Below are positions 1 through 55,327 of a DNA stretch of 64,000 nt, piece after piece (the stretch's first letter is position 1; every line of letters starts with the position of its first letter). The position numbers were made by a program, and so were the translations under genes. The DNA is from Bilabrum cf. latius (taxonomy: Eukaryota). The DNA is taken from the NCBI GenBank assembly GCA_965178125.1, contig OZ237773.1:310001-374000 (forward strand), read 5' to 3'. The notes beneath the pieces are model-generated. The model saw nothing but the letters and a program-made list of their open reading frames with translations. It ran no database searches and was not told the DNA's origin.

Positions 1-2609
1 CCCTCCGGACCTGCCCGTGCCTCTTTTCCAGCTCGGCAAACACCAGCCACAGGGGCAGGGCGCTGGCGAGGCCTTGTTCCCCGCCCTCTCCCGCGGCAGC
101 CACGGCCTCCTCGCAGATTTCCCTGGCCCTCTCCAGCTTGTCCAGGCGACCCCCAGGAGCACCCAGCACGTCGATCGAGGCACCAGCCGCTGCGGCCACG
201 GCGGGCAACGACGACGAAGATGACGAAGATGATGATGAGGACGATGATGATGACGAAGCAGCACCGGTACCTGCCCCCCCGGCGCCCTTGGTGTGGCGCT
301 TCACGAACGCCCCGATGTAAGCCAGCCACAGGTCCCTCTGGTGCGGCCAGCCGAACGCCGCCACCCCCCTCTCATACACACGGAAGGACTCCTCGAACTC
401 GTTGTGCGCCTGCAGATACTCTGCGTGCTGCAGCACCATGGCCGCCGTGGCCACTCCCAGTCGAAGGCACAGCGCATGCGCCGCCTTGACCTCATCCACA
501 GTGCCCAGGGACTCCTCCAGGTCGAGGAACAGCGCCCACACGCGGGGGTTCAGGTGCAGCCGGTCTCGCGCCGAGGTTTTGCCACCCCCGTGCAGTCGCC
601 GGAGAACCGCCGCCGAAGGTTCCCTGACGGCCTCGGCGGCCACCGCCCGGGCCTCCTCCAGTCTCTCCTCCCTCACCTCCAGCTCTGCCAGGGAACAATG
701 CACGGCGGCCAACTGGTCCACCCTCCTGAACGATACCTCAATGGCGCGCCGGAGCACCACCCTCGCCGATTCCGAGTCCCCGTTCCGCTCGTAGAGCCCT
801 GCAAACGCGATCCACAGCTCTTCCAGCTTGCCAACCGCCTTGCCCGGGTCCACCGCCTGCGTGGCCTCCTGAAACGCAAGCACTGCCTGGTCCGGCCGTC
901 CCTGCTTCTCGTACAGCTGTGCCCTGTCCAGCCACTCCTACACGCTCTGGGGGTTCTGCCTCAGCCGCACGGAGGACAGCAGCAGCGGCCGCCTGGCCAC
1001 GAGGACCTCGAGCCGCTCCATCCTGAGGGCGAGGTCCTCCTTCCCGGCCTCCAGCTGGGCCAGCTCTTTGCCCTCGATGTCGCTGGCCCCGCGGTCACCA
1101 GGCGAGTCCCCGCCCGCTGATGCCGATGAGGACGATGCAGACGCACCAGCTGCCTTGTTGGAGCTGTCCTATTCGTCCTCGTCCTCGTCCTCGTCCTCGT
1201 CGTCATCGGACACCTCTCCCGCAGCGAGCAGCAGGGTCTCCTCAAACCGCACGTAACTATCGTACACGGTCGCGAAATCCCTCACCGTCATGACGGCTTC
1301 GATCCCCTCCTCGTACACGTCTCTCGCCCGCTCGAACCTGCCCTGCCTCGAGTGCCAGTCCGCCAGCGCGCACCACAGCCGGCCCACCTCGTCCGAGAAC
1401 CTCCGGATGCCCGAGCGGAGCACCTGCTCCACATTCAGCGAGCGAACCTTCCCCGCGTGCTCCGACACGGTCGCGCACAGCCGCAGCCACAGCTCGTGGT
1501 GGGACCGCCCCCGCTTGCTGACGAAGGAGGGGTCGTCCACAGCGCGCGCCAGCACGAGGGCGCCCTCGTCCACGCGGCCAAACCGGAAGTAGTACTCGGC
1601 CAGCCGCTCGAGCTGCTTGGGGGCGAACTCGACGAACCTTCGCAGCAGCAGGGCACCCGACCTTGGGGGGACAGCCGGCTGCCGCCTCCAGTCGATGCCC
1701 AGGTGCCTGCGGACCGCCCGCTCGTCCCGTCTCAGTTGTTCCCTGGCCTCGGTGTCTTGCGCGGAGGCGCCCTTGGCTGCGGCGGAGGAGGACGATGAAG
1801 TTCCGCTGGATCGCGCGGCGCCGGTGCCGAGAAGTTCGCCGCGCTCGTCGACAGCACCCTCATCCTCGTCGTGGTCGTCATCGCCGCGCTCCGGTGGCAG
1901 CTCAAGGGACGGTACCTCGTAGGAACCGTCCTCCAGCATGCGAGGGGGGTCGGATGTTTCTACGAAGCGCACGACCGCTGGCCAGACGTGGTCGTGCTGG
2001 GTGACCGGGAGGGCTGCGAGCGCCCTGTCGAGCGTCTTGCGGATTTGGGATACTTTCCGGCGGCGGCAGAGCAGAGCGATGTGATCCCTCCACACAACAG
2101 GCATTTTATGCATGTATACCAAGGCCCGCTCAAAGACGTCGGACAGGCGTGCGAGGCGCGGGGAGGAGGGATTGCAAGCACTTGTTTGCTTGCTGCGCTC
2201 CCGCAAGTATCGCTTCCATAGCTTGTACGATCCTGGCAGGCACCGCAAGGAACGCTCGTACAGGTAGTTTCTAACCTGCAAATAAAGTTGGGTGGAGCAC
2301 GATGGGCAACACCGTAACGGAGGCTGTTGCCGGGCTGCATCCCAATAGTGACAGTTGTCATGAGCCAAGCCTTCAAATAGGGAAACGATCCTGCACGACT
2401 ACTACATTTGTTCTCCATTAAAATTGATAGTATTATTATATTCTCACCGGAGGGGTTGCATCTCTTTTTGAGCCCAAATACTCCAGCCACAGCGACAGGT
2501 CCAATGGATTCCGCTTAAGCTGCTCCTCAAACGACACGTCGTCTTCGTTCAGCTCTAAGGTTCCAACTGCTGCAACGTCGATGTCGGTACCTCCGCGCAG
2601 TTGCGCCAT
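1..2609 (-). CDS. SYF1: Pre-mRNA splicing factor SYF1/XAB2 (HAT repeats); 3' end runs off the window start
   Basis: Exon 1 2609-2448 (EDDVSFEEQLKRNPLDLSLWLEYL), then GTGAG..GCAG intron 2447-2276. Exon 2 has YERSLRCLPGSYKLW, FSDEVGRLWCALAD, RRPLLLSSVRLRQNPQSV*EW, DLEESLGT and FEESFRVYERG, all recognisable XAB2/Syf1 motifs. In-frame TAGs at 1169 and 938. Confidence 0.93.
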
Positions 2610-4187: not shown

Positions 4188-5929
4188 TCAGTCCCCATCG
4201 TCCATTGGCTCGCTCCAACCGCAGTCACCTCCCCCATCTACGCGTGCTCCATCATAGTGTCGGCCAGTAGACTGGTTCCCCGCCGCGGCCCATCGACTCA
4301 TCGATTTCCTCTCTGCGATCCTCGCCGCCATGGCGGCCTGCAGCCGCACCTCCCTTGCCCTCCGGATCTCTTCCCGGGCCGCTGCCTCTCTGCGTCTAGC
4401 CATCTCTTTCAGCTGCCACTGTCTTTCCTCCAGTGCGTGCTGGGTCCTTCGGCGAGCCAAGTCGGCCTCCAGCTGCTCCACTTCCGCCCAGTGGGGAGAC
4501 GACCTGCCTGCATCGTCGTGCGGTGCACCCAGATGTAGCGTTGACTCCAGCAAGACAGCGTGCGGTTTTCCTACCTCGGGCGACTCGTTGCTCATCGTTT
4601 GAAAGCGAACAGGCCTGCATACAGCAGTCCTCTACCGCAAGGCCCAAGAGTCCCGCAGCACTCCCAGCATGCCACCATCCAGCGCACTGGCTCGAAGGTG
4701 GTGATGTGCATCCGATGCGGCGCCTCCACCCCATGTCGGTGCTGTGGCAGCAACAGAGATGATAGTGGGCCGTGCTGCTCCCTGGGCGGCGTGGGCAACA
4801 GAGCTGAGCTGCTTGGGGGCGGATGCAGCAGCTGCTGCTCGGGCTGCTTGCGATGCTGCGATGGATCCGCGTGAATTTCCGTGCGCGCCTTTCCTGAGAC
4901 TCTGGTCGCCTCTAAAAGCACCGCTGCTCCATACCTGCTGCCCTGCACCGCCACGATGAGGCCCCCAGGTCTGACGCAGGGGTTTCTGTGGGAAGGGAGC
5001 GCTGGGTGGCCCTTCGGCGTGCCAGTCTCTGCCGACTTGTTGGCCATTGCGGAGGGTCCACTGCCTGTTCTACGGGCCCCAGTTGTGTTTTAGTGAGCTT
5101 CCAGCCTCCGACGTAGTCTGCAGCTGCGAGGAGGCTGTCAGTTGGGAGGACGTTGTCGTGGCAAGCGACCTGCTCGACGTAGAGGCTGTCGTGATCGAGT
5201 CGTTTTTTCCGGGGGCACTACGGGGCATGGGAGCGATGGGCCCCGATCCAGTCCGACTGCTGAGGAATGCAACCCGCCCATTGGTAGGCGCTTCCGGTCC
5301 CTGCAGCTGCGGCCCGCTCCCGGTCTCTTCCCACTGGGCTGCTGGTTGCCCTGCCCCTCTCCCGGTCTCTTCCCACTGGGCTGCTGGTTGCCCCGCCCCG
5401 CTACTGGACGATGTGAGGGCCACGGGACTATAGTGGTCTCGCAGTTGGGTGGACACCATGGGCATGGGACCCGGGAAGGTGCAGTTTTGCATGACGCCTT
5501 CGTGCTGGAGTACCCCCCCATGCTGCCTGCTGCTAGTGGAGGCGGCGTCATCGGCCGGCGGATGCACCGGGCCGAGACCCAGCCCCTCGAGCCCGCTGCC
5601 CATGGAGGCGCCCGAGCCCGGGCGAATGGAGTGAGGGTCGTCCAGGCTGTCGCTGCTGATGCTTCCATTCGGGGAGAACGACCCCCGAGGGTAGGACATC
5701 GCCACCTGCGCGCCTGCGCGGCTCGTGTCGTCAAGCATGCTGTGGTCGTCCATGTCCCAAGCATTCCCGGTGCCTGCAAGTGAGACTCCGCAAAGAATTA
5801 ATTGGAAAATAGTATGCAAAATCTGATGCAAGTCAGTACCCTGCGTATTATTAGAGTGGAAGACTCACCTGGAGCGGCACCCGCCGTTGACGTCTGCTGC
5901 TGCTGAGGACCGACTGCTGGAGACCTCAT
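4188..5929 (-). CDS. Unknown low-complexity protein with C-terminal coiled coil (paralog A)
   Basis: ATG 5929, intron 5868-5774, then one frame to TGA 4188 with TAGs at 5070 and 4632. Long blocks are near-identical to 17575-20176. Confidence 0.7.
5317..5399. repeat. 42-bp tandem duplication (GAGQPAAQWEETG x2) inside paralog A
   Basis: ctcccggtctcttcccactgggctgctggttgccc occurs at 5317 and 5359. Confidence 0.9.
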
Positions 5930-10164: not shown

Positions 10165-11118
10165 TCACGAAGCCTGCTTCGGCCTATCGATTCCCTTGTC
10201 TCTTGCCAGCTGGCACACCTTCTTCAGTAACCGACACGACCCCTCCCACTCTTCCCCAGCAAATGCCTCAAACCTCTCGAACCAGTCGTTCACCCGTGGC
10301 ACCTCACGCATGCGCTCCTCGAAGTCGCCGAGGGCCTGCATGGAGGCAATCTCCGAGGCGAGGCTGACGTCAGCGATGCTCGCATACTGCGTACCTGCCA
10401 CCCATGGGCCAGACCATGACGAAGGAGGTGCTTCATCAGTGCTGGAATGCAAGTTGTGTGCAGTGGGGCCGTCTGCCAGGCGGTCCAGGCGGCCCTCGAG
10501 CTGGGCAAGTGCTCGGGCGAGCACGCGCTCTCCGCGCTCGATCGACTGCTCGCTCCTGGTAGGTAAGCCACCGAGCGGTCCCATTACCCTGCCAAAGGTT
10601 ACCGGTGCAGACCCAGGCCGCAGCGCGCAGTGCTACCAGTCAAGGTGGGCATCAATAGATGCCTTGCCCTGCAGATCGTATCCCGCGTACCAGTGGTGGC
10701 TCACTCCGAAGGCAGGCTCTGACGAGAGATACCTAAGAATTGCGTGGGATTCAGAAAGGACAAATGGCGCACTATTTGAACCATCTGCGCCGTTCCCGGC
10801 CTGTTCCTCGCTAATCACCTCAATAACTGGAACTTGTCCCATTGGAGAGAGCTCTGCGACAGTGTGCAAACCCCATCATGATATGAATGAAGCAGAAGTT
10901 TGGTTCCGACACAAAGATCTGCTCTACTACGACCTCCATAAACGAATCTTACTTCGAAACCATTCTGTTCTGACGTCTCCCTTGGCGATCCTAACAGTCT
11001 TGAAGTCAGCATGCATAGATTTCGTTGATTTCATCAGGAAGTACACTGCCCTGGCCGGCTGCGAAATCAAGTCAGCATACAACCTAACGATACGTTTGGG
11101 ACCATGATTTCGGAGCAT
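10165..11118 (-). CDS. Glutathione S-transferase, theta class
   Basis: Exon 1 11118-10953 (LYADLISQPARAV), intron 10952-10854 (GTAAG..GCAG), exon 2 LSPMGQVPVI..LSESHAILRYL..LDW*HCALRPG..SIADVSLASEI. One TAG at 10633; ends TGA 10165. Confidence 0.9.
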
Positions 11119-14983: not shown

Positions 14984-16818
<1,835 letters not shown>

Positions 16819-17282: not shown

Positions 17283-17574
17283 TCCGAGCATTGCGCCCTT
17301 CAAGTGCTTTTGGAGTCAGCCAGCAGCGCGGACCGTAAGTACCCATGCGACGCGAGTGCACTGGCTGCGTCGGGCGACTGCGCGCATGCCATCGCCGCAA
17401 CAGATCTCAGGAGAGTCTCCGGAGGTAGCACGCCACAACTTCGTCGTTTTATCTAGAACCTTTACAAGGGACGAACACAATACAACACAATAAAGTCTAT
17501 ACACAATAGCACAAAGTGTGCCACACACCAACAAATAAGATTATAACACAACACCCTGCGAATCGCAATAGCGC

Positions 17575-20176
17575 TCAGGCCTGCCTGCCTCTCTTCCTGT
17601 CAGGCTCCTCTGAGCCCGAATCTACTTTTAAGGCGTCCTCTTTGCGAGATCGCTTCGTGCCAATGCTACTAGGATCTTCTTTCGGATCCATATGTGCTCC
17701 GTATTCCATGCTCTGAATGCCAAAAGCAACGCTATTGGCGTTCGTTGGTGACCCTACGTGCACCCCGCGGGGCCTACGTGGCCTAACCGTTGAAGATCGC
17801 CCAGCCATTGTTAACTGCAGGCGCATGGGTTTCCCGCCATGATTGGATGTTCCACCCAGCCTGTCGGCACTCAGCAACCCGCGTGCCTGACCGCTGCCGC
17901 TAGCCCCGTCGCTGTCGCTGCGGTTAGAATCCGCGTCGCAGTCGCTCTCATGCGCATCTTGCTCTTCCTCGCCACAAGGACTGCTCGATCGATGTCCCTT
18001 CGGTGTCGTCGATTTCCTCTCTGCGATCCTCGCCGCCATGGCGGCCTGCAGCCGCACCTCCCTTGCCCTCCGGATCTCCTCCTGGGCCGCTGCCTCTCTG
18101 CGTCTAGCCATCTCTTTCAGCTGCCGCTACTGCTCCTCCAGCATATGCCTGGCCCTTAGTCGAGCCAAGCCGGCCTCCAGCTGCTCAAGTGCTTGGTTGT
18201 CCGGCAACGACCTGCCTGCACCATCGTGCGGTGCACCCAGATCCAGAGTAGACTCCAGCAAGACAGTGTGTGGTTCTCCTACCCCGGGCGTCTCGTTGCG
18301 CACCGTTTGAAAGCGGACAGGCCTGCACACAGCAGCCCTCTACCGCTAGCCCCAAGAGTCCTGCAGCACCCCCAGTGTGCTCCCATTCAGAGCACTGGCT
18401 CGAAGGTGATGATGCGCATCCCATGCGGCGCCTCCACCCAGCGCCGACTACACGGGACCCGCTCCCGCATCAGAGATCCCGGTATATTCCACGGAAGCAT
18501 TGGAGCTTGATGCACTTGCTGCTGCCGCAGCAGCTGCCATCGATGCAACACGGGCTGCAGCCCTGGCGGCAAAGGCAGCGCGTGCTACCGCTGCAGCAGC
18601 TTCGTTCGAATGCCCGCTCCTATGCCTGTCGGCACCATGCAGCCCGATGTACGCATTGCTGCTCTAATGCATTGGGTCCTGCTGCTGTGGAACGCGCTGT
18701 CCACCCTGACCCTGACTGTACACCCCTTGCGCTTCGTGAGTGCCCCACGACCTCATGGTAGTGTAGCTCGCGCTAGGGCCTGTCTGCAGCTGCGAGGGCT
18801 CTGCTGTCGAGTGGGAGGACGTTGTCGTGGCGAGTGACCTGCTCGACGTGGAGGCTGTCGTGATCGAGTCGCTGTACGAGAGGGCACTACGGGGCAGGGG
18901 AGCGATGGGCCCCGATTCAGTCCGACTGCCACCGCTCCGATCCGAATTGGCTTGCAGGTGCTGCGCTGTACTGTAGCTGTACCCGTAGGTCTCGCCGTAG
19001 GAGACAGAATCCGGCGGCTGCATGATTCCGAGGGTGGAGCGGGGACTTCTCCCTTCCCTGCCGCCCACTTGGATACATGCACCCTGCGATGGGTTGCTCT
19101 GTAGTGCTTGCGATGCATTCCTGCCTCCGTGCAGTCCATTCTCGCTGCTGCTGCTGCTGCTGCTGCTTATGCTTTCCATGTAAGGTGGCTGCCCATGAGG
19201 ATCTTGGTGCCCCTAGGGCTGCTGCTGATGCTAGGATACGTGGGGAGTCACCGGAGACAAGGCGCCACCCGGCCCAATCATCAGGCTGCGCGCGCTGCTG
19301 TACACAGATCCGATCATCAGGCCTGCAACGGGAGGGGGCACCTCCTCGGCGTACCTCGGCGGCAGGGAGCGGAGGGACTGCCCGCTGCCCGAGAAATTTG
19401 AGCTGATCTCGGACAGAGAAGGCGGGGGGGGCTCCGGGGGCCCGCCGGCCCACTTGCTGTCGGCGAACATGGGGCGGTTGGAGGAGGGGCCTGCCTGGCC
19501 AGTGAGTTGTTCCCCAGCTGCTAGCATGGAGGGAGGAGCCGGTTCCACCTGGCGTAGTGACCCGTACTGGTTCTCTACCCAGGGGACCGGTCCTTGCTGT
19601 TGCCCTTGCTGCTGCTCTTGCCATCGACCGGCCCCTCTCCCGGACGATGAAAGGGGCGTGGAGCCTTGGTGGTCTCGCAGTTGGGTGGACACCATGGGCA
19701 TGGGACCCGGGAAGCTGAGGCCCTACGTGGATCCATCCAGCTGAGGATACCCCCCATGCTGCCCGCTGCTGGTGGAGGCGTCGTCATCGGCCGGCGGATT
19801 CACCGGGCCGAGACCCAGCCCCTCGAGCCCGCTGCCCATGGAGGCGCCCGAGCCCGGGCGAGTGGAGTGAGGGTCGTCCAGGCTGCCGCTGACGATGCTT
19901 TCATTCGGGGAAAATGACCCTCTCATGTGGGACCGTGCGCTGTGCACTCCCCCGCTCGCGCCATCGAGCAAGCCGTCATTGTTGTAGTCCCAGCGGTCCT
20001 CGCTGCCAGCTCGAGCGGCTCGACCACCTGCGAACCAGTTCAACAAGCAGCTGAAACAATTATAATAATATAGGGCGAATGTGCTTCGATAGCATCTCAA
20101 AGAAGCTCTCGCGAATCTCACGGTGCGATGCCATCAGCTGCGGTGACTGTTCGGCGTCTTTGTGCGGAGAACTCAT
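17575..20176 (-). CDS. Unknown low-complexity protein (paralog B)
   Basis: ATG 20176, phase-1 intron 20121-20028, then one frame to TGA 17575 with TAGs at 19723, 19231, 19213, 18664, 18448, 18346, 18340 and 18127. Same exon layout as paralog A and shares sequence blocks with it. Confidence 0.72.
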
Positions 20177-21015: not shown

Positions 21016-21067
21016 GCGACTCGCCCTTCGCGATCGTCCGATCGGACGATCGCGAAGGGCGAGTCGC
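21016..21067. repeat. Perfect 52-bp palindrome with no loop
   Basis: gcgactcgcccttcgcgatcgtccga is followed immediately by its exact reverse complement tcggacgatcgcgaagggcgagtcgc. Confidence 0.95.
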
Positions 21068-30561: not shown

Positions 30562-33500
30562 TTACGTAGGCTCATTCACATCACCCTCCTCATCCTCATC
30601 GCCACCCATCATCTCTAGAATCTCCTATTTCCTGTCAGCCGCGCTCATGGAGCCATCATTCTTGCTTCCTGCCCCCGTGATGAGCTGCACGAGCCAACGA
30701 CCTGCTCTCCTGCGCCACGCATCGCTGGCCTCTTCCATCGATTTCGGAGGCTCCTCCCCGCTTCCGACAGTCATTTCATACTCGGTCGGAAGCTCGTCGT
30801 CGAGCTCATTTTCTATGCCCTAGCTCCCGCTCTCACCGGCACCGGCCTCCTCGCCGGAACCCAAGTCCTCTCCGTCCACGCCGGGCTGCTCGCCCTCCTC
30901 CTCGTCGCGTTCCTCTTCCCCCCCAGCGGACTGCCCCCAGAGGTCCTGCCCCTTCTCTTCATTATCCTCATCGTCGTCATCGTCCACGTCCGGCCATCGA
31001 TCGCTCCTGAGACCAAGGATGTTGGCGCGGTCCTGCGGCATGGGGGGGCGCTCGATCTCCAGCACGTCAGGGCAGGAGGCATCTGCGGCTGCTCCCTGGA
31101 CGGTGCTTCGCCCACCTTCGCTACCATTTCCAGTGGCCTGCCGGCTTCCGCTCTCTCCCGTGGCCCCTGTCCCTGCCCCCATCTTCGCCCAAGGTGGCAG
31201 CCCTGCACCCCTGAGTGTGTCCATGACCCGTCTGTCCCTTATCTCTTCCCGCCTGCGGTACAGCTTGATCCGATCCTCCAGTCCCGCTCCGATCCTCTCC
31301 GTGTCCTCTTTCTTGTCCCCCTCACCCACATTCCCATCCTCATCTTCATCCTCGTCGTCCTCCTGCTGCATCTCCCGCACCTCCGCCTCCCTTCGCTCGT
31401 GCACGATCTCGCGGGCGCCAAACCAGTAGTCGCGCTCTTCCAGTGCAGACAGCATCTCCGGGTCTTCACACTCGTTCACGCCGGCGCTGCGTACCCACGA
31501 ACCTTCGCCAAAGTTCGCCGAGCCCCGGCTCTTCCTGGTCGCGTGCCGCCGGCCCCCGCCCCGTCGCTGGTCCTCATCCTCATTTTCCCCCTCCCCCATC
31601 CCCTCCATGTCTCCGTCCTCCCCACGACCCCCGCCCACCACCCCCGCTTGTTCCCCGAGCTCGTCATCCCAGAGACCGTCGCCCTCCTCCTCCCCGGGCT
31701 CCAGCACGCGCCCCGACAGCCGATGCACTCTCTCCTGGGCGCACCACGCTACCCACTGGTTCAGGTCACGCGCATACACCCGCCTCTGCTCCTGTGTGGC
31801 CCACCACCGGGGCCTCTGATTCACGAGCAAGAGCCGATAGATCTCCGACACCTCGGCCGTGTCCCCGATCGCGCCCAGAGCAGGCTCCGTTCGCTCGAAG
31901 ATGCTGGGCCTCCGCCGGGGGTCCTCGTCCTCCAGGCCCAGGGCAGGGTCCCTCCGCGCCGGCTTCCTCTGCCGCCTGCTCTTGCGCTTGCTCCTGCCCC
32001 CGCTGCTGCTTGCACCGCGCTTGTCATCCTCACCTCCCCCCTCCTCCTCGAGATCCTCTTGCCCCTCGCGAACCAGCGGCCTGTACCTGCCCATTGACAG
32101 GTCGTGCTCCGTGTCCAGGGCCTCTTGTTCCTCAGGGAACAACGCGTCGTGCACGCGGGCGAACTCGTTGAGCAGCCCCCTCGTGTCCTGGGGCGCTGGG
32201 CCCCTCCACCTCATGTGCCAGTAGGGGGCGTTCCTCCACCCCGCCTGCTCCTCCTCCAGCGCAACTGCGGCTTCTCGCCGCGTGGGGCCCTCCAGGATCT
32301 CATCCGTCCTCAGCCGGGCAGCCACCCAGGCCGGCAGGACACCCGTCAGCAGGCTCACCCGCAGGCTGTCGCAGGCTCTCGGGTCCGCGCACAGGGCCGC
32401 CACCCACAGTGTGACGAGTGCGCGGTACCTCGCCGATGCGCTCCTGGCCTGCCGCACGTCCAGCGGCCTGTCTGGGGGAGGCCCCGTGCAGTGCTCGGGC
32501 AGGATCTTGCGGGCGCCCAGGGGCCGGAGCGGGTTGGTGGAAGGGACGATGGGCAGCGCCTGCAGCTCTTCTGGGCTCCTAACGGGAGCGTCGTCGTCTT
32601 CTTCTTCTTCTTCTTCTTCTTCATCATCCTGCTTTTGCTCCTTCTCGCTCTTGGCACCACTACCCTTGTCTTGCTCACCATCCCCACCCAGTGACCTCTT
32701 CTTTGACCACTGTCGGCTCTTGCCCCCATCCGCGCCCTCCTTGTTCCCTGGACCTCCCGTCAGCTAATCCGCCAGATCGGCCCGGCTCGTGATCGGCTTC
32801 CGCTTCCGGGTGGCGTGCCTCTTGCGGGGCACGGGCTCGGGGGCGGCGCCAGAACCAGCACCGTCGGGCGTTTTATTGCCATCGGGAGCTTTCTGTGAGG
32901 ATGCTCCCCCTTCGGAACTGGAGCCATGTTCCCCTGCCTTGTTCCCTGGCTGCTCGTCCACCTGAGCATCCTCGGACTCGCTGCCCTCCATCTGCTGCTG
33001 CTGCTGCTGCTGCTGCGGAGTGCTCTCCTTCCCTGCTGCTGACGCAGTCTCTTCTGCCTCGAAGCCGAGTATGCCCCTCTCATGCTCCTCCCAGACCGTG
33101 AGCTCCGTGTCATCCGCGCCCAGGGAGCGGTAGAACTCGATCGTTTCCTCGCACGCCCGCTCCATCGCAGATCCGGGCTAAAGCGCGCCCCCGGAGTTGC
33201 CCCACCTGTCCAACGCACGGACCTACTCGGCAGCGACAGAGTACCTCTGGTTGTCGAGCGACCGCTCCCGGGCCGTGTACGTGTCCGAGAACTCCCACGC
33301 TGGCGCGTGTCCCCTGGGCTCGTCCACGCCCGTCCTGGCCGCTGCCTGCTCGCAGCACGCCTCGTACAGCTCCAGCTCCAGGAGCCTGCCAACCTCGGCG
33401 CAGCGCGCGCTCACTGTCCCCGGCAAGCCCTCCGCCAGCATCCTATCACACCTCTCGCACAACCAGGCGAGGTCTGCAGTCGGGGGCACCTGGTTGGCGC

Positions 33501-36500
33501 TCCAGCCCCGCCCGTCCGCGCTCCTAAGCGGAGAGCCGCTGGCGCCATCCAGGGTCTCCATGGAGAGAGACTCGCGTTTGTCGGCGAGCCGTCGGCTGAG
33601 CCGCTTCGGGGATGACGCCTAGGCAGAGCCGCCTGCCTCTTCACCGTCACTGCCCTCACCGCGTGCAGCCGCTGCCTGCTTCGCCTCCGCCTCCTTGACC
33701 CTGGGGTCCTCCTGAGACAGGGACAGGGCGCGAGCCAGCGCCTCTGCCACCGCCCTGCGGGCCGATGCGGCGGCGCTGACGTCATACCCGTCAAACTTCC
33801 GCATCCTCCGCAGCCGCTCCTTCGGCCCCGCCAGCAGGTCATTCACAGGGAACAAATCGACCGCGCGAGGGTCCCCCAGGCAGAGAGGGGGCTCTGCCTA
33901 GCCGGCATCGAAGTCAGACAAGGGGCCCCCCAATTCGTCGGTCCCTGTGGCTTCGGTGCTGCTCTTGTTGGGCTTCTGATCCGAGGGGCCGTCAGCAGAC
34001 ATGGGTGCCTGGCCCGAGCCTGACCCACTGGCGCCGCCCCTGGTCCCAACACCACCGCGCCTCGCGTCTCCCTCGGGACGGCACACCCAGCCGAGCCGGT
34101 CAAGTGCATTACACTGCGGCACCCCATCCCCCAGCGCGGCCAGCACGTCCTAAGTCAGCCCCAGAGTCTCCAGCACAGGCAGCACTAACGTCTGGTAGGA
34201 GGGGGCACCTAAGGCCTTCGTGAGTGCCTCCTCGTCCTCCTCGTCCTCTTCCACGGCCAGCTCCTCCTATTTACCTCCTCCTCTTCTTCCTGCTGCCGCT
34301 GCTGCTGCTGCATTGGCCATCGCGCGGCGCTACTTCCTCACCGCCGCCATGACCCTCTGCCTCCTCCTCAGCCGATCCAGAGACACGGCCCCGGGCGCGT
34401 GCCTCCTCCTCCTCCTCTCCGCCCTCGCCTCCCTCCTCTTCGCCTTACGCTCCTGCCTCAGTCTCTGCGCCTCCAACCACGCCAGGTCCTCCTCCTCCAA
34501 GTCATGGCGGGACCGCTTCAGCAGGCGCTTTCTCTTGCGCCTGTCGTCTTCCTCATGAGCCCCAGCGCCCGCTGCCCCGCCCCCCACTGCGTCCCGCGCC
34601 GCTCGCCGTTCCGCCGCCCGCCGCATCGTGTCGGTGCTCATTGCACCTGCTCCGAACCCGATCACGGAGGAGTCATCGCTGTCAGATTCTGTGCTGGCGC
34701 CTCCCCCCAGCAGGCCGCCCACCCGCCCGGACTCGTCTGTGCTGCTCCCGGACATGTCTCCCTCCGACGTGTCGTCGTCGTCATCCTCTTCCTCTTCCTC
34801 GCTATGGATGCCGTCCGCTTCGTCCACACCGTCAGCATGGCCACCAGTGCCGCGCCCCGTCTTCAATGTGGGCATCGCGCTTGCCGCCCCGCCCCTGACC
34901 CCGGGCTTGCGCTTCCTGCGGCCGGGAGATGACGCGTCCCTTGCCCGTGGCCTACCCAAGCCCGCCCCTGCCACCATCCTCCTCCTCTTCTTGCGGAGGG
35001 GTCCGGAGGAAGACACGGCCAAAGCGGCGGAGAGCTTCTTCCTCTGCCTCCTGGCCAGCCGCTGAGCCTCCCTGTCCTTGCCCAAGCCCGCGGCAAACAC
35101 CGCTGCCCTGTGCATGTGCAGACCAGCCAGAGGCCCAGCGAGTCCCATCCCAAAGGAAGCGTCCGGCTGAGCCCTGATGGTCTTGATCTCTGCTCCTGAT
35201 TCCTTGGACATCGCAGCTGCTTTCCTCCGAGCCTCCTGCGCGGCAAACACAGACGGCTGCATCACAAGCTGGGACAGCCGCAGGAGGACGTCCTCCCCGG
35301 CCCCCGCACCGCTTAGCAGACCCTGGGCGCATGCCAGCGCCGTCATCCTGCCCGCGGCCGTGCCCCCCTGTCTCCCGCCCCCAGGGGATTTCACCCCCCC
35401 GCCCTGGGGTCCCCCCTTGGGCACCCCTAGTCTGAGCCTCCTCATCACCATCTGCTTCTCACGGATGTAGTCGCCCAGCTGCGTGCTCTGCGTGGCCAGC
35501 TGGGCCTCCCATGCCTAAGCAGCCTTCACGGCCATGGAACCAGACACGATCCCAGGCTCCGGCTTGGAGCCAAGCGTGCGGCCCCCCAGCTGCAGCAGCA
35601 GACGAGCCACCCCCGCGATGGCGTCCTTCCTCGAGGACGAGGCCGCCTTGCAGCCCATCACCGGCTGGGGGTCGTGGAGGGGCAGCGGGATCTGCGGCCC
35701 GGTGGGCTGCTTGGAAAAGGACCCGTAGGCTGAAGGGGCTGAGGAGGAGGATGAGGTTGAGGAAGACGAGGATCGAAGAGGTTGTCCCTGGCGGGCCCCC
35801 GACCCAGGACGGCCGGATGCACTCGTCACACCGAATGACGAATGCGGCGGGCGGATGCCCCTGGCAAGCGGCCTGTGGCTCAGGCCCCTGCCAGACCCCA
35901 GCTGCTGGTGCTGCGGCCCACCGATGCCCGCCCTATTAGCCATAAAGCTGCCCGGCCTCGCTCTGCGAAAGGACCCTACCTGCGCAGCGCTGGCCCTCTG
36001 CTTGGCCTGCGCCTGCGCCCTCTGCTGCCTCTGTCTCTGCAGTGCCATTGCTTGCTGCTGCTGGATGGCCTGCTACTTCCTGAGCTGCTCCTGCTTGACC
36101 CTCTGCTGCGCCGCCAGATCCCTCTTGGCGGTCTGCTGCAGGCTTTCCAACAAAGAGGGCCGCGGGGGCTGAGGCTTGTTCCCCGCTGTTCCCTGGGGGA
36201 ACACGGGCCTGGGTGCGGGCTTGGCTTTCTTCTTCGATTTTAGCAGCCGATCCCTGAACGCCCGGGCTTGCTTTGCCCTGGCCTCCTCTGCTGCCCTCTT
36301 CTTGGCTGCCTCCTGCCGGGCCCTCTGCAGGGCCGAGGGGAGGCGGGGGGCGGCGGGCGTGGAGGCTGACGGGGAGGAAGATGACGAGGAGGAGGAGGAC
36401 AGCAGAGACTTGGCGGAGATCCCGGCAGCAGCAGTGGTGGTGGTGATGCTGCTCAAGCCGGTGCTGGCCGCTGACAGTGCTGGTGCTGGTGCTGGTGCTG

Positions 36501-37353
36501 ATGTTAGTGCTGGTGCTGGTGCAGGGGTGACAGGTGTTACCACCGCTGTGACCGGCCCTGCCGCCGAACTTGCAATTGCCGCGCTGGTGCTGGTGCTGGT
36601 GCTGGTGCTGCCGGATGCGCCCTGGCCCGCCCGACCCGCCGCCAGCTTGCCCAGCCCGAAGCGGGAGAGGAGTCCCCCGCCTCCCTTCGATCCAGAGAGC
36701 TTGCCCAGCCTGCTCGAGATACTGCCCAGCAGCGAGGACCCGCTGCCTGCGGAACCGCCGGGAGGTGCCTGCGCGGCGCCGGTCGCGCCCGCACTAGGAG
36801 CCTGTGAGCCAACCGCGCTGCCTACTTGCGTTACATCATGCGACGGGCGCGGTTGCTATGTTCCGAACCCGCCTATTTTCGCCAACCGGCTCGCAACGCT
36901 CGATGCGAGGCTCGACTGGGAAACCGACGCAGGGGCAGCTGTGGCCGAAACGCTTGATGATGCGCTGCTCGGCGCAGACCATCGCGTGCTCTGCGCCACT
37001 GGGCCAAGTTGTGATGCCGCTGGTGGAACGTACGATCCAATTGGGCGACCAGGGAATCCAGAGCTTCCTTGCAGGCGGTACCCGCCGTAGCTACCTGGCA
37101 CGGATGGCGGACGAACAGCGCCAGCGACTGGGGGCGCATACCCCCCGCGAAACTGAGTGTAATTGGTATTACCATGTGGGCCTCCAGGTGGCGCGTAGCC
37201 TGGCTAGCCTGCGGGGCGCGGTTGGTACCCTCCTTGCTGGAACGGTTGCGGTGCCCCACGCCCTCGGGGTGGCCGGCCGTATCCTGAATACTGCGACGCA
37301 TTGGATCCTGAAGGAACATACCCACCACCCCAGTGAGGTGGCTAATTGTTCAT
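30562..37353 (-). CDS. Very large unknown protein (about 2263 aa, intronless) with a G/P/Y/Q-rich N-terminus and charged low-complexity blocks
   Basis: Nine ORF-track fragments share one frame. ATG 37353 to TAA 30562 with 15 internal TAGs (37342, 37204, 36856, 36073, 35515, 34330, 34267, 34150, 33898, 33619, 33223, 33178, 32764, 30820, 30625). Confidence 0.72.
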
Positions 37354-37502
37354 GATTCCTTCGCGCACGTGTTGGATATTATTGCTGGGCTTTTTTACTT
37401 TCTGTCATCCAAACAGTTCGCTACTGAATCAATAAACCAGACTACTTTTCCCCGCACTTGCAGGACTGATTGAATTCTGGTATCGCTACTGCCAGTGCGT
37501 CC
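37354..37502. promoter_or_regulatory. Putative bidirectional promoter between the giant ORF and the carboxypeptidase
   Basis: 149 bp AT-richer spacer between divergent ATGs. Confidence 0.45.
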
Positions 37503-47911: not shown

Positions 47912-50900
47912 TCATTTGGGTGGTGGCCCAGGCGGCGGGCCTCGTGGCGGAGGCCCCCTGCCCCCTGCCCGTGGGGGACCAGGCGGGGGCGGCCCACCAC
48001 CCCCTGTCGCCCCTGGTGCCCCGGGCGGGGGTCTTGCCGCCCTTGGGGGACCGGGACCCGGCCGGCCCCCTGGCGGAGCCCCCCTGCCCCCTGCCCGTGG
48101 CGGCGGGACGAGTCCTGGTCCTGAGCTTGGAGGGGGGGGTGGGTGCGCCTCTGGCACGGGCGGTCCGGGGGGCGGACCCCTTGGCGGGGGTGCGTTTCCC
48201 GGGGGTGGACCACGGGGCGGATCCCTTGGCGGGGGCGCGTTTCCGGGGGGTGGACCACGGGGCGGATCCCTTGGCGGGGGCGCGTTTCCGGGGGGTGGAC
48301 CACGGGGCGGACCCCCGGGTGGGGGCAGCCGACCCCCAGGGGAGGGCCCTGGCGGGGGCGGCCTCGCTCCAACCAGGGCCTTGGGAGGCCCATTCGGCTA
48401 CCCAGCCCCAGCCCCAGGCCCGGCACCAGGACCAGGTGGAGGCGGAGGCGGCGATATGCTGGATTTGGCAGGGTTGGAGGCAGGGGCTGGTGGTGCACCC
48501 GGGGCACTGGGGGGTGGCGGTCTCCCGCGCCCCAGTCTGGCCCTACCCCTGCCAGCGGGTCTATTCGCTTCTGACTGCCCCACAACCGCCTGCTCCTTCC
48601 GCTTCTCCTGCTCTGCCTGTTTCTTGGCTTCCTGCTGCTCCCTCCACGCCTTCATCGCACCGCTGCCAGTCCGGCTCCGGGTCCGTCCCCTAGACCGGAT
48701 CCCCTCCATGGCGGCCTCTTCGTCCTACTAGCCGCCCTGTGGCTGTGGCTGTGCCAGGGGCTGGGGCTGTGCCGGCGGAGGCGGGGGTGATTTCAGTGCC
48801 TGCGAGGGTGGCTTCGCTGGCTGGCCCTTGCTCGGCGGGGGGGGCGGCGAGGGCGAGGACTTGGGCGGCTTGGGACCCTTGGCATGGGGCTTGGATCGCG
48901 GTGGGCCCATCCCGGGCGGGGCCTGTGCCAGTGCCGGTTGCTGCTCCCTTGCAGGCGGCGCGGGGCCCATACCTCTGCCCATGCCTCTGCCAGCCACTAC
49001 ATCCCCATCCCCATCCCCATCCCCCTCTTGTCCTCCCACTGCCGCCTGCTCGTCCTCGACCTAGTCGCCCGCATCCCCGCTCTTGCTCTCAGAGGCCCCT
49101 GCGCCCCTCGGAGCAGATGGCGGCTCCCTCGGTCTGAGCCTGGAGGCAGTCGGAGTCGGGGGCGGCGGCGCACCCTATCCCTATCCCTCGCCGGCATGAT
49201 CATCATCGGGAGCACGTGGTACACGGGGCTTGGGTGTTGCCATCCCTGGTGGCGGGGTGGCGCCCCCTCCTACTGCCCCACCGTAGTCGTCATCGTCGTT
49301 CTCCATGGCACCGCCGGTGTCGAGGCTGCCTGCCGCGCCGGGCCCAAGCGCTGCTCTGGCCCTCTTCTCCTCTTCCTTCTTCTTCTTGGCTGCGAGCTTG
49401 GCCGCTTTCCTGGCCTTCTTGGCTGCCTTTTCGGCTTTCTTGGCTGCCTTCTTCTCGGCCTCTTTCCTCTTGGTCTCTGCCTTCTTGCGCTCCTTCTCTG
49501 CTTTCTCCAGGTCCGCGTTGTACTTGCCTACCGTAGATTTCATCGTCTCCACGAAGTTGCACCACTGAGGGAAGAACTTCTCCGGTTTCTGGTCGTCCTC
49601 CTCCACCTCGCCCATGTACTTGCACGTCTTCTGAAACGCCCCGACCATGTTGTCGAACCGCTGCTGCACTGCGTCTGCCCGTCTCCTTGCGTCTTCGCAA
49701 AAGGCCCCCAGCGCCCGGATGAACGTCTCGTCACCCTTCTCTCTCGCCTTTTCCAGGGTCTTGTTGAGCGTGTCGGCGCTCTTCGCGATGGCCTTGACGC
49801 CCATCTCGGGCTTGTCCATGGTGGCTCCTTTGCAGTCGAAGGTCCTGGGGAACTTCGAGGTGATGTCCAGCAGGTGGGGCCGCTTGCGAGCCAGCGCCTC
49901 CACGATGTACCGCAGGGCGGTTTTCTTGGTGTCCTTGGCCGTCTTGGTGTCTGCGATGGCCTGCAGCCCGGATAGCTTGATCCCTTTGGCTCCCGCTTTC
50001 TTGGTGCCCTTGTGCAAGATCTCGCTGAAGGGCAGGATCACGCCCAGGAGAAGCTCCTTGAGCTCGGGGTTCTCGAACTCTTCGCACGCATCCGCGATCT
50101 GCTTGATGGCCGCTATGGCCTCGTCTTCCTGCTCCTCGAAGTTCTCGCTGATGAGCATGCACTGCAGTCTGTCGGCGAGCAGTGGCACGTCCTTGATCGC
50201 GTACACGAACTGCTCGGGCATATCCATGCGGTCGAACTCCTCCGGCTTGTGCTCGTTGGCCTTGGCCAGGTGCGCCGCCTCTGGCACGTTGGCGGCCAGC
50301 ACGGCGATGCCCTCGCCGCCTCCCAGGCCCTCCAGGTCCATGTCCTGGATCATCTCGGCCGTCTGCTTGAACCCGATCTTCTTGAACCCGTTGGCTGCGA
50401 ATGAGAGGGCCTGCTTGTACTTGCCGTCGAAGTCCAGGAACTTGACTACGCTCGGCTTGGCCTTCTTCTTCTTCTTTTTGTCACCCTTGCCTCCCTTGCC
50501 CCCCTTCTTGCCCTTCTTTTTCTTCTTCTTCTGCGGTGGCATGAACATGTCCTTGATGTCCGGGAACAGCTCCTTCATCGCCTTCCGGTCGTTCCTGATC
50601 TTCTTGGTGTCGTGCCAGATGGTACCCTCGGGGGACTTGATGGCGGCGAAGTGGATCTGGCGCATCTTGGGGCCGGCCTTCTTCTTCTTGGGCTTCTCCG
50701 GCTTGTACCCCTTGGGCTTGCCCTTGGTGCGGTGCTCCGTCACGAACACGCCCAGTGCGAACGCCTTGGTGACATGCCTGTCCTGGGCCTGGATGCGGGC
50801 AGCGCGCATCAGCAGCCCAAGCGCGAAGGTCTTGCAGGCCCGGTTCCTCCGGATGCGGTGCCTCCAGCACATGAGCGGCAGGCCCAGGGCCATGAGCTTG

Positions 50901-53900
50901 TTGGCCCGGATCCTGAGCGTCTATTTCCTGACCGCCATGAGGCCGGCACCCACCACCATGAGCTTGGCAGCCATTTTCCTCCTCTGCCTCGCGCGGATCT
51001 GCTGCGCCACCATCCCCAGGAACATGAACTTTGCGGCGGAGCGGCCCTGTCTGCGCTTGGAGCCCAACGATTTGAAGAGGCCCATGGCCAGCAGCTTACC
51101 CCGCAGCATACCGAAGATGTCGTTGGCATTCATCATCACGGCCTTCAGCCGCCTGTTATTGGGGTTATCGATGGCCCGCGCGAGACCGGGCTGCGCGACG
51201 GCCTGTTCCCGGTCGCCCTCAGGGAGTAGGTCACCGTAGAAGCTCTTGCCCCGCTGGATGCGGCCCCTCCCCCTCCCCGCACCGTCTCCGCCGGGCCCAC
51301 CCTCCTCGTACTCGCCCCCGCCCGCGCCCGCACCGCTCGCTGCCCCGGTACCCGCCCGATGGCCTCCGCCACCGGTCTGCTGCCCGAAATTCTCCGGGAT
51401 CGGCTTGTCGGAGAAATATTTCCTCCGCTCCACCTCCTCCCTGAGCGCCTGTTTGGCCGCCTCTGCGTCGTCCAGCTGCTTCTGGTAGTCCCCCGCCAGC
51501 GCCTCTGCCTCCTCCGCCCTCCCCTCCGCTTCCTCCACCATGGCCTGCAGCTCGTCCTGCTCCACCTGCTCCCCGATGTTCGTCACGTCCTCTTCGGATA
51601 TGCCCGACATGCCCAGGGCCGTGGACACGTCGTACTTGACCCGGCTCACCAGCTCGAACAGCGCTCTCCGGGCCACCTGCACCTCAGGGTGGTCAGAGGC
51701 CTCCCCCTCCTGGGACTTGGCGATCGTCCACACCGCGTCCCGCAGTCCGTCCCTCAGCTGTTTGAGGTCGGCCACGGGCATCTGGCTCGCCGCCTCGGCG
51801 CCTGGATCCACTGCCACCGGATTGCCCTCTCCGTCCACGCGACTCGCGCCCCCCGCCGCCTGGGCCGCCGCTCTGTTCTCCGCCAGGGTGGCCAGAGTGG
51901 CCATGGATCCGGCCAGCTCCGTGGCAACGTACTTGAGGGCCCCCATCGCCTCATCCGCTGTGTCGAAGTGCGTCGCGTGGCCCTCCAGCTCCTCCTCTTC
52001 CACGCCCAAATCGGGGTAGTCCAGGTCGCCCAGCACGGCCAGCTGCCCGCCCGCGCGGCTGGCACGGCCGGACCCAGACCGGGGAGTGCCTGGCCCTGCA
52101 TCCGTCCCCGTGCGGGACCGTCCTCTTGACCTCCGGCTTGGCATCCTGCGGAACGACATGGACCCCCGGGGGGTCCCCCCCGATCCCCCAGGGGTGTCCC
52201 CATCTCCTGCAGGGGTGCCCCACCCTTCCCCGTCGGGACCCCCTTCGGAGTCCTCTCCGCTCCAGGGGCTGCCGGGCCTGACCCCACGCACCCCTGGAGG
52301 GGGACCGCTGCCGTTACCCCCGTGTGGGGTATAATACCCTGGCCCCGGCCCCGCTCCGATCCCGTCACCTTCGGTGCCCCATTCTCGTCCCCCGCTGGCC
52401 GCACCACCAGGCCCATATCCCTCACCGCCTACCCCGTAACCTTCAGCGCCCCCAGGCCCGTACCCCAGGTCCCCCCCTACACCCGCACCACCACCACCGC
52501 CGCCCCCGCCGAACATGCTCTCCGCCGCCATCCGAGCGATGTCATACCCTGCAGCCTCCTGCTCCGCCCCAAGAGGAGCATCCATGCCCCCACCGAACCG
52601 CAAACCAGCTCTAGCACCATCGCCCCCGCCGGGTCCATACCCTCCCCCTGCAGCACCTCCATCATCGCCAGGCCCCCAGCCCGGCCCGTCCTGCACGCCC
52701 ATATCGGGACCACTGCCAGGCCCCATGCCTTGTCCTCTTCCTCCTTCTCTTCCTCTATCTTCACTTTCCCCTACTTCCTGATTCGCCCCCATAGGACCGT
52801 ACCCTTGCTCGTACCCCCCCGCGGTTGCTTGCCCTCGTCCTTGCCCCTGTACTTGCCATTGCTACCCCATGCCCTGATCCGACCAGCCTTGGCCTTCTTG
52901 ACCCCCCTGAGGCCCGCCCCGCACCCCACCATGCTGCGGGGAAACCCCGTATGGTGCATTGTCCCCGCTCCCATACTACCCACCGTCCTCACTTTCTCCA
53001 AGCCCCTCGGGACCGACACCCGGGCCGGGGCCAGCGCCGGCGCCTGCCGCTGCACGGCCCCCGTATGCTCCATCTGGGCCCCCAGGCCCGCCCACCACGT
53101 CGCTCTGCGAAGAATACTGGTCAAACCCGCCAAATCCACCGGTGGATTCGACCTGCCCTGCTCCGACGGCACCGCTGCCGGGCTCCCCACCGTCAGCAAC
53201 GTCTCTGCTACTGCCAGCCCCACTAGCCGATCCACCACCCGCCTGTGCCTATCTGAGCTTTGCGTGCAGCACCATTTCCCTCTGTTTGGCCTGTACCTGC
53301 ATGCGCTGCATGGCCTGTGCAGTGGCCATGTAATGCTGCTGCACATGCTGCAGCATAGCTGCCTGTTGCTGGGCGGCTGCTGCGTATGCCGCCATTTGCT
53401 GCTACATGGCGGCAGCACCCACGCCCCCGCCCATGCCACCCATGCCCATGCTTGCACCCATGGGCCCGGCACCCGTGTCGTCATCAAAATCACCGTCGTC
53501 GCCCATGGGACCCATGCCGCCCATCCCCCCATCATCGTCATCGTAATCCCCATCGATCTCACCAGTACCGTCCATGTCAGGTCCATACCCACCACCGGCC
53601 TCCCCAAACATCGCACCGCCCATCCCGCTCCCGCCGTTGCTTAGGTCAGGACCCATCCCACCCGCGTACATGCCCATTCCCATGTTCATGCCCCCGCCAC
53701 CACCTCGTCGCCTGCCCCGCCCTCGACCTCCTCCGCCTCCTCCGCCAGACGAGTCGGAGTCGTCGCTGTCATCTTCATCGCTGTCCGAGTCATACGACTC
53801 GTCATCGTCGCTGCTGACGTCTGACCCAGACCCGGACCCGGAATCGGAATCTCGCCCAGAGCTGTCTTCCTCCGGACCCTCCTGCTCCTCCGAGCCCGAG

Positions 53901-55327
53901 CCCCGCTTGGACTCCTGCCAGCCCCGTGCACCGCCCCTTGCCGCCCCTCTTGCGCCTGCGCGCCTCAAGGACCTGCTTCTTCCTCTACTTCTTCCGCCTG
54001 TCCCACTCCTGGTGCCACCGCCACCGCCACCGCCACGGTACCCTTCCTCTTCGTCGCTCGAGCCCTCCGCCCCTGTGCCAAAGACGATTCCACCACCACC
54101 ACCACTGTTCCCTGCATTGGGACCCCCGCCCCCCGCACGGGGACTGCCCGAGCCCATGGCCGCCGAGTCCCCAAGGGCCGCTGCAAGCCCACTCAGGGAA
54201 GACGACGATCCGGCGCCGCGCATTGCGGAACCGGTCGGTGTGCCAGAGGGCAGGGTGTGCTGGTGCTGGTCCTGGGCCGATGCAGATGCAGACGCCCCCG
54301 CGCTGCCGACCACCGGCGGGGGCAGGCTCGGGGGCCGCGGCGCGAACTTTTTCTTGCCGTCGGGACCTACGAGCCCCGCGTCACCGCTCGGCTGCCCCTG
54401 GTCATGCCCCTGGCCTAGATTTCGTCGCCCACCATCCTCTGGTTGGTCTGACCCAGGGGCCTGCGGCAGGGGTTTTAGGACGGGCTTCCTTCCTTCCGCC
54501 TTCGCCCTGGCCCCTTCCGCCATGCGGGCCGCTTGCACGGTCTGCATATGGTCCTCCCCGAGCTCAGCCCGCCTGATCCTGTATGCCGACTGGAACTTGG
54601 CCGCCGCATCTGCTGGCTGCTTGAGCCGCAGGAACAGCTTGCCTTGCTCGTAGTCCATGCTGGCAATTTCGGTTCTGGAGCCTGTTCCACTGCTCCTTAG
54701 GGAATCCCTAGCGTGCTCGAGCAGCTCGATCGCGACCTCCAGCCCCGCGCCAGGAGCCGCAGCCGCGAGGGTGCCTGCAAACCGGTAGGTCTCGGTGAGC
54801 GTGGGGTCCCCCTGCTAGAGGCACGCCTCTCGAATGTCCAGCGCCCGCCGCATGTATCCGAACGCCTCTCCCGCCCTGCCCATCTTTAGCTCGCAGCTGC
54901 ACGCCCGCACCCACAGCTCGGCTGCGTCTGGCTGGTCCCGGCCGAACTCGTCCTCGACGTGCTCTGCGTACGTACGGTACACTTCTAGCGCTTTCTAAAG
55001 CTGCGGAGGTTGCAGCTCTTCTTCGCAAGCGTATGCGCAGTGCCCGTACACTGCCGAGTTCTCGCGAAATCGAGGCGACGGGTCCTCGCGCACCAACCGG
55101 GCTGCCCTATGAAAGAACCACGCCGAGGCCGCTGCATCACCTTCCAGCTGCCATGCATGGGCAGCAAGAATCAATATTTGCAAGTGCCTTTTTCTCTGGA
55201 ATCCGCTGTACGTGATTAACGCGCTGCGAAGTGATGCCATGCCGTACGCCACCGCGCCGAACTCGTCGCCGTTGCGAAAGCTGCGGATTGCCTCTTTGCG
55301 CAGTTCTTTTTCTTCCATAGCAAGCAA
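47912..55327 (-). CDS. Formin (FH2 domain) with N-terminal TPR-like repeats and C-terminal Pro-rich region, about 2470 aa; a short extra 5' exon near 55430-55475 is possible
   Basis: Seven ORF-track fragments share one frame, with 13 TAGs (54995, 54815, 53402, 53249, 52976, 52862, 50921, 49181, 49175, 49061, 48728, 48725, 48398), ending TGA 47912. FH2 motifs KMRQIHF..GTIW, MPEQFV, GAKGIKLSGLQAIADTK and KYMGE..PEKFF. TPR-like RRALDIREACL and AYRIRRAELGEDHMQT. Confidence 0.85.
48171..48316. repeat. 45-bp tandem repeat x3 in the formin Pro-rich tail (PRGPPPGNAPPPRDP)
   Basis: Units start at 48171, 48216 and 48261, with a partial unit at 48306. Confidence 0.88.

Follow-up and report, generated by a model that had tools for sequence, protein, structure and literature searches.

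In-frame TAG in a GC-rich, intron-poor nuclear genome is read as a sense codon and probably encodes glutamine

Introduction

How is the triplet TAG read in genes whose reading frames contain it again and again? The question is raised by two paralogous genes, A and B, in a 64,000-nucleotide stretch of DNA from the eukaryote Bilabrum cf. latius (assembly GCA_965178125.1, contig OZ237773.1, positions 310,001 to 374,000 of the forward strand). This whole stretch is here called the window, and all positions are given relative to its first letter. Several TAGs interrupt the frame of gene B, and fewer that of its paralog A (Table 1). The initial annotation of gene B had compared the two genes and proposed, as evidence independent of any database, that TAG mostly behaves as a synonym of the glutamine codons CAA and CAG (CAR). 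All four pairings to which it referred (TAG opposite CAA, CAG, TAG and TTG) are present on the minus strand at the positions where it had placed them. The proposal itself holds on wider evidence, whereas the paralog exchanges are weak when taken alone, and independence of databases applies only to this weak part and not to the rest of the case. The case rests on the structure of the open reading frames (ORFs) throughout the window, on conserved genes that are read through TAG, on TAGs that are unchanged in sequencing runs showing splicing, and on relatives found in protein databases.

Results

TAG within open reading frames

The GC content of the window is about 61 % and introns are few. With all three stop codons active the three longest ORFs have 666, 654 and 647 amino acids. 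When TAG was dropped as a stop codon, ORFs of 2493, 2280, 1877 and then 1165 amino acids were obtained, and reading through TAA as well gave little gain (2280 to 2311). When TGA, which is commoner than TAG, was dropped instead, the longest ORF was at most 1189 amino acids. All 16 long ORFs contained TAG in frame, in total 97 times. Fifteen of them end inside the window, 12 with TGA and three with TAA, while the Syf1 ORF runs off the window edge and has its end outside. TAG accounted for 95 of 15,763 in-frame codons, i.e. for 12.5 % of the sum of TAG, CAG and CAA. The TAGs were evenly distributed along the ORFs (24, 27, 19 and 25 in the four quartiles) and the base following them showed no bias, which is unlike programmed readthrough.

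Several of the long ORFs can be identified as known eukaryotic genes. Pfam families were matched for the FH2 domain of a formin (E = 2e-47), the splicing factor Syf1 (E = 1e-64 to 1e-41 for three HAT-repeat families), the dihydrouridine synthase Dus, leishmanolysin and M14 carboxypeptidase. Exons coding for parts of a PhyH dioxygenase, a theta-class glutathione S-transferase (GST) and FKBP were identified in addition. Residues 460-717 of the predicted Syf1 align with human Syf1 without a gap across the TAG codon, and the alignment of the GST exon likewise continues across its TAG. A close relative is represented by four protein pieces (P0009-P0012) from one 8170-nt contig. Their ortholog in the window is the 2280-codon ORF, with 91.5 % identity over 1300 aligned residues, and the alignment extends across seven of the window TAGs.

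Contigs of sequencing runs were compared with the window over positions 16300-36200, and gene A lies outside that span. Contigs of the runs X5 and X7 are joined across 23194>23324 and 24730>25009, and on the minus strand the skipped segments have GT..AG ends. It is from these joints that the two runs are taken to show splicing; none of the matching runs is recorded as RNA. The introns skipped, 23195-23323 (129 nt) and 24731-25008 (278 nt), belong to the gene of a 427-codon ORF, and in the DNA-like run X2 a listed contig (21038-24143) is continuous through at least the 129-nt one. The X5 contigs span at least 20 in-frame TAGs with no differences and no gaps, and over 33026-35367, which contains seven TAGs of the 2280-codon ORF, they show no differences either. 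Since these TAGs are unchanged and ungapped in a run with spliced joints, editing and hidden introns are disfavoured; neither editing nor splicing removes the TAGs. TAG is thus a sense codon, which we regard as practically certain without relying on genes A and B.

Termination by TGA and TAA

Neither TAA nor TGA occurs in frame in the ORFs of 2493, 2280 and 1877 codons, but as the ORFs were defined by TAA and TGA stops, this absence and the count of terminators are partly circular. No in-frame TAA was found among approximately 15,800 codons, whereas the CAA:CAG ratio of 156:513 would predict about 29 if TAA encoded glutamine. The GC content falls past the terminal TAA, from 0.70 to 0.50 in M8 and from 0.58 to 0.47 in o579. 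In the 2280-codon ORF there is no such drop and the frame remains open over a further 31 codons, and its true end is therefore uncertain. Among the window ORFs, the ends of which are predicted, no gene end could be assigned to TAG. A TAG does lie 6-26 codons before the predicted end in o658, o579, big2280 and o870, and this weakens the case for TAG having lost its role as a terminator. TAA is not a sense codon here, and TAA and TGA still end genes.

The amino acid at TAG

Of the seven window TAGs covered by the close relative, it has Q at three and E, K, A and S at one each. When these orthologous sites (Q in three) were pooled with two sites compared in the reverse direction (Q in both) and four paralogous sites (Q in two), glutamine was the partner of TAG at 7 of 13 sites, and P0005, a third member of the A/B family, provides an additional Q. 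Compared with a glutamine background of 4.2 % the enrichment is strong (p = 3e-7). Besides Q, no residue was found more than once among the orthologous and paralogous partners, and Y was never found. A likelihood based on the substitution counts of the ortholog alignment placed Q first, ahead of His by 1.8-2.3 log10 units and ahead of every other residue by at least 4.5. TAGs are also found inside Q-rich runs, e.g. KGKQQQQK[TAG]QQQ in Dus. Two of the relative's ORF pieces end opposite a window CAG and one opposite a window TAG.

A number of observations weigh against glutamine, or at least against a firm assignment. The commonest one-step neighbour codons of TAG include CAG, GAG being commoner still. 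If the partners are simply such neighbours, a CAG share of 0.21-0.40 is expected, and 7 of 13 then gives p = 0.02-0.23 depending on the transition weight. The enrichment of glutamine opposite TAG is accordingly evident against the background composition and marginal against mutational neighbours. The relative keeps Q at 39 of 42 ordinary CAG or CAA sites, compared to three of the seven TAG sites (Fisher p = 0.005). The only widely conserved enzyme column with a TAG, that of the GST, has H in GSTT2, P0007 and Typha and Q in human GSTT1, and the Syf1 column varies between H, A and G. Q occurs within two residues of 21.6 % of the TAGs and of 15.1 % of all codons, a weak enrichment. The pieces of the relative are protein sequences, which do not show the type of stop at their ends. 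A tRNA with the anticodon CUA was not among the results of the tRNA and Rfam scans, which returned no tRNA and no Rfam match within the 64 kb of the window; the gene of the release factor eRF1 is likewise absent from these 64 kb. Taken together, the alignments make it probable that TAG encodes glutamine, but this meaning is less firmly established than the status of TAG as a sense codon. The low conservation of the TAG sites may mean that these codons are recent, carry a mild cost or are imperfectly decoded.

Genes A and B

Genes A and B were each modelled with two exons, and their introns have an identical position and phase 1, the splice sites being predicted from the sequence. Three blocks are conserved between the genes, and the offsets between them differ by 39/42 and 567 nt, which are multiples of three. 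The 434 and 293 nt of the two longer blocks contain no indels at about 15 % divergence, no frameshifts were found, and each anchored indel is a multiple of three. The in-frame stop triplets are all TAG, 8/8 in B and 2/2 in A. TAG makes up 30 % of the stop trinucleotides of the window, TGA and TAA being jointly 2.3 times as frequent, and eight TAGs out of eight would arise by chance with a probability of 0.30^8 = 7e-5. The density of TAG in B, 8 per 852 codons of the stop-to-stop frame, is similar to that in the neighbouring ORFs o870, o786 and o658.

A search of 1.84 billion representative proteins gave four matches for B, all of them fragments of B or of close copies. Two are near-identical (99 %) and two (86 % and 66 %) are from a relative or a paralog; no homologs of A or B outside their own lineage were found among these representatives. 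P0003 (85 % identical, from a relative or paralog) ends directly before the B TAG at 19231-19233 (residue 301). The C-terminal tail of B, beyond all its TAGs, has 66 % identity to P0004, and both terminate in ...KRGRQA. No Pfam family was found for A or B, a search of the PDB with the C-terminal block of B gave nothing at E < 0.8, and BLAST did not connect A and B to the other Ser-rich ORFs of the window. Among the listed contigs no piece of X5 or X7 lies over B. Apparent variants at 19862 and 19886 were considered as alleles and rejected, as the bases are those of A at the homologous places and point to paralog cross-mapping. A and B are best regarded as real, fast-evolving paralogous genes with two exons each. 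Their products are lineage-specific proteins rich in Ser, Gln and Ala and probably disordered, and carry two conserved blocks as well as a basic, helical motif at the C-terminus.

The TAG sites of the two genes differ in the quality of their alignment (Table 1). At the four differing sites that are reasonably aligned, the partners are CAA, CAG, TTG and TGG, i.e. glutamine in two of four. The paralog pairings are weak by themselves because CAG is one transition from TAG, so that a nonsense mutation, or any tolerated meaning of TAG, would often give CAG. Moreover, the TAG/CAA pair falls in the 30-nt stretch with the highest divergence in its block, in which 14 nt differ. Around the TAG at 18127 three neighbouring codons differ (CAG TAG CGG in B, AGA CAG TGG in A), and an alternative alignment with two compensating 3-nt gaps places this TAG opposite TGG. 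P0005, which is 82 % identical, has Q at the same site and rescues it from the doubt about its alignment. The strongest paralog evidence for read-through is the TAG common to both genes, which, as the initial annotation had observed, is followed by conserved sequence.

The substitutions between A and B indicate little constraint on the amino acids, which further weakens the paralog pairings, and are less favourable to a coding function. In the C-terminal block the dN/dS ratio is 0.50, the lowest of the six frames, and in the N-terminal block it is 0.96, with no frame standing out. The differences are evenly distributed over the codon positions (15/14/15 and 19/18/24), and the identity is a mosaic in which stretches with no differences in 60 nt adjoin others with 14 in 30 nt, which argues against A and B being coding. 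Neutral evolution accompanied by frameshifts beyond TAG, which the initial annotation had named as the outcome contrary to its proposal, was found in part: the substitutions come close to neutrality, but frameshifts are lacking and the anchored indels keep the frame. The mosaic stretches of B are 18006-18109, 19801-19860 and 19681-19710, together with the matching parts of A, and those with few differences (0-3) are without silent changes. The mosaic suggests gene-conversion tracts together with hypervariable segments, or constraint at the nucleotide level.

Other features of the window

Short introns with GT..AG ends, 94-278 nt long, are present in the window. The deepest contigs of X5 and X7 lie at 21148-22308, with word depths of about 417 and 26, respectively; contig depth cannot rank expression. 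The ORF under them (21205-22362, minus strand) is acidic, Ser-rich and unannotated, and has no Pfam family. A perfect (CTG)n repeat of about 57 units at 16080-16250 corresponds on the minus strand to a poly-Ser tract within a 579-codon ORF (14984-16723). In the M14 carboxypeptidase ORF, a 36-nt unit is repeated in tandem at least 11 times at 40854-41404 and encodes a 12-residue repeat rich in Ser, Pro and Thr (SSSPSNTSTPSI). The formin has a proline-rich tract C-terminal to FH2 (47912-48400), with 45-nt repeats at 48138-48317; in typical formins the proline-rich FH1 region is N-terminal of FH2. In the Dus ORF (6512-10009) the Pfam match begins at profile position 28 and residue 297, and about 190 residues separate it from an upstream stretch that resembles the start of the domain; this insert carries three TAGs. 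The C-terminal part of the leishmanolysin, which bears its TAG, gave no match in a PDB search. When metagenomes of the Joint Genome Institute (JGI) were scanned with Syf1, there were 596 pattern matches, none of which was confirmed as a relative, the patterns requiring near-identical relatives.

Table 1 Features of genes A and B and of other genes in the window
Feature	Position	Strand	Remarks
Gene B, inferred two-exon model	17575..20176	minus	835 codons + TGA, 8 in-frame TAGs
Gene B exons and intron	exon 1 20176-20122; intron 20121-20028; exon 2 20027-17575	minus	intron 94 nt, GT..AG, phase 1, GC 0.43
Gene A, paralog of B	4188..5929	minus	548 codons + TGA, 2 in-frame TAGs (5070-5072, 4632-4634)
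Gene A exons and intron	exon 1 5929-5869; intron 5868-5774; exon 2 5773-4188	minus	intron 95 nt, GT..AG, phase 1, GC 0.40
B N-terminal conserved block	19628..19920	minus	A 5392-5684; 293 nt, 85 %, ungapped (BLASTN); contains TAG 19723-19725
B middle conserved block	18782..18929	minus	A 5116-5260; 148 nt, 86 %, one 3-nt gap (BLASTN)
B C-terminal conserved block	18006..18439	minus	A 4298-4731; 434 nt, 86 %, ungapped (BLASTN); contains TAGs 18346-18348, 18340-18342, 18127-18129
B TAG	19723-19725	minus	opposite A CAA 5487-5489; N-terminal block
B TAGs	19231-19233, 19213-19215	minus	within B-only insert
B TAG	18664-18666	minus	opposite A CAG; poor alignment, 5/20 flanking residues identical
B TAG	18448-18450	minus	opposite A TGG; block edge, adjoining 3-codon indel
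B TAG	18346-18348	minus	opposite A TTG 4638-4640; C-terminal block
TAG common to B and A	B 18340-18342, A 4632-4634	minus	16/20 flanking residues identical
B TAG	18127-18129	minus	residue 669 of the 852-residue stop-to-stop frame; opposite A CAG 4419-4421; Q in P0005
A TAG	5070-5072	minus	opposite B CAC; poor alignment, 5/20 flanking residues identical
Formin gene, FH2 domain	47912..55393	minus	2493 codons, 13 in-frame TAGs, TGA end; longest ORF with TAG read through
2280-codon ORF	30562..37404	minus	15 in-frame TAGs, TAA end; ortholog pieces of the relative span 7 TAGs
Syf1 TAG, residue 502	938..940	minus	ungapped homology across the codon to human, Chlamydomonas and other Syf1
Theta-class GST exon TAG, residue 81	10633..10635	minus	Q or H in this column of homologs
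TAA gene ends (three)	30562-30564, 62319-62321, 14984-14986		

Discussion

The window is best explained as nuclear DNA of a GC-rich, intron-poor eukaryote in which TAG has been captured as an ordinary codon, most probably for glutamine, while TGA and TAA stop translation, the pattern of NCBI translation table 15. The TAG/CAG and TAG/CAA differences between genes A and B would then be silent changes among three glutamine codons, and the TAG/TTG and TAG/TGG differences ordinary replacements. Decoding would be accomplished by a tRNA-Gln with a CUA anticodon, in combination with a release factor for which UAG has ceased to be a stop signal. Many of the TAGs may be young, having arisen by single steps from CAG, in which case the change was silent, or from GAG, AAG, TCG, TTG or TGG at tolerant sites. 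If the TAG codons are young, relatives would therefore often retain the older codon.

It is also conceivable that TAG is a sense codon but not, or not only, one for glutamine, being read as His, Glu or Lys or by a mixed near-cognate decoding that is tolerated at unconstrained sites. The poor retention of Q at the TAG sites in the close relative compared to ordinary glutamine codons is in agreement with this, as are the E, K, A, S, L, W and H among the partners and the H in three of the four homologs at the GST column. Nuclear codes in which UAG means Leu, Ser or Glu are, moreover, on record in the cited passages of PMC11687900 and PMC8271138. However, no other partner is as common as Q (7 of 13, and P0005), with the others found once each at most and Y not at all, the likelihood favours Q by the margins given above, and young TAGs at tolerant sites would likewise show low conservation. 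We consider such a reading unlikely. A serine meaning of the Scotinosphaera type was rejected on the ortholog-alignment likelihood.

Two further explanations would deny the TAGs any bearing on the code. Gene B, and perhaps A, could be a decaying duplicate in which the TAGs are nonsense mutations, mostly at CAG, so that the pairings are uninformative about decoding. The N-terminal dN/dS ratio and the even codon-position differences would fit decay, as would the lack of A/B homologs outside the lineage and the fact that, CAA excepted, the reliably aligned differing partners are all one-step neighbours of TAG. It is difficult to reconcile with decay, on the other hand, that every stop in B is TAG although TGA and TAA are together the more frequent triplets, that the TAG density of B equals that of its neighbours, and that frameshifts are lacking and the anchored indels are multiples of three. 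Both copies have retained the intron and the reading frame and share one TAG that is conserved on both sides, the C-terminus past every TAG of B is conserved in P0004 to an identical end, and essential genes, e.g. Syf1, also carry TAG. Decay of the duplicates thus appears very unlikely. Even less probable, to the point of being hardly credible, is that the TAGs never reach the ribosome, either because the introns that contain them were not recognised or because RNA editing turns them into CAG. Short introns do occur here, but the protein alignments across TAGs are ungapped (Syf1, A against B and the ortholog of the relative), the X5 contigs have no other letter and no gap at the TAGs they span, and the 97 TAGs in 16 ORFs would require equally many in-frame mini-introns.

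A code in which only UAG has been reassigned to glutamine is a known, rare type among nuclear codes, as far as the cited passages of the following papers go. It has been described, with UAA kept as a stop, for Iotanema spirale (PMC5304391) and for Hartmannula sinica, Trochilia petrani and Protocruzia tuzeti (PMC11687900). About eight cases in which UAG was reassigned without UAA are given in PMC11687900: Iotanema, the rhizarian exLh, Scotinosphaera, three phyllopharyngean lineages, Protocruzia and a ciliate whose UAA and UAG encode different amino acids. The window resembles the table 15 cases in that TAG is present in most genes, glutamine fits best and TAA is retained as a terminator (3 of 15 ends). 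As in those cases, TAG shows no bias of position or context and is a minority glutamine codon, with the share given above compared to 18.5 % and 31.8 % in two ciliates (PMC11687900). It differs in its main stop codon, which is TGA here (12 of 15 ends) and UAA in the UAG-to-Gln ciliates and Iotanema (PMC5304391, PMC11687900). The high GC content, the long, intron-poor ORFs and the many low-complexity inserts also set the window apart from the table 15 cases. The PhyH dioxygenase family requires oxygen, and a PhyH exon such as that in the window would therefore be unexpected in the anaerobe Iotanema.

Reassignment of both UAA and UAG (UAR) to glutamine, as in table 6, is reported for many ciliates, hexamitid diplomonads, some Ulvophyceae (Dasycladales, Cladophorales and Trentepohliales) and Streblomastix (PMC11687900, PMC8271138) and for Amoeboaphelidium protococcarum (PMC6299283), again according to the cited passages. 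The window shares with these codes a change from stop to glutamine, and the likely route, a tRNA-Gln with an altered anticodon, would be the same. It differs in having 95-97 in-frame TAGs and no in-frame TAA, where about 29 would be expected, and in that TAA ends three genes. A likeness to Amoeboaphelidium was considered and rejected, as its genomes have about 40 % GC (Table 1 of PMC10608142) compared to 61 % here, and its change concerns UAR and not UAG alone. UAG has also become Leu, with UAA as a stop, in exLh and in a phyllopharyngean ciliate lineage (PMC5304391, PMC11687900), and Ser in Scotinosphaera (PMC8271138), at least in the passages cited. These lineages resemble the present case in that UAG is uncoupled from UAA in a nuclear genome. 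They differ from it in the meaning of UAG, as L and S are each the partner of a single TAG here, compared to seven for Q, and both lie at least 4.5 log10 units below Q.

The organism would thus be a further case of the UAG-only reassignment to glutamine, unless it has already been described. It is possible, although rather doubtful, that it represents an undescribed and independent origin of this code outside the ciliates and fornicates, in a GC-rich, intron-poor eukaryote that stops mostly at UGA, with an unusually fast turnover of TAG. Under the standard code most genes of this genome are annotated in parts that break at TAG, and the database proteins recovered here are such fragments. If an independent origin with so fast a turnover were true, the genome would show the capture of a stop codon while it is still under way. 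An organism that is GC-rich and stops mainly at UGA would widen the known conditions for the capture of UAG, and with a relative as close as 91.5 % protein identity the gain and loss of a reassigned codon could be counted site by site.

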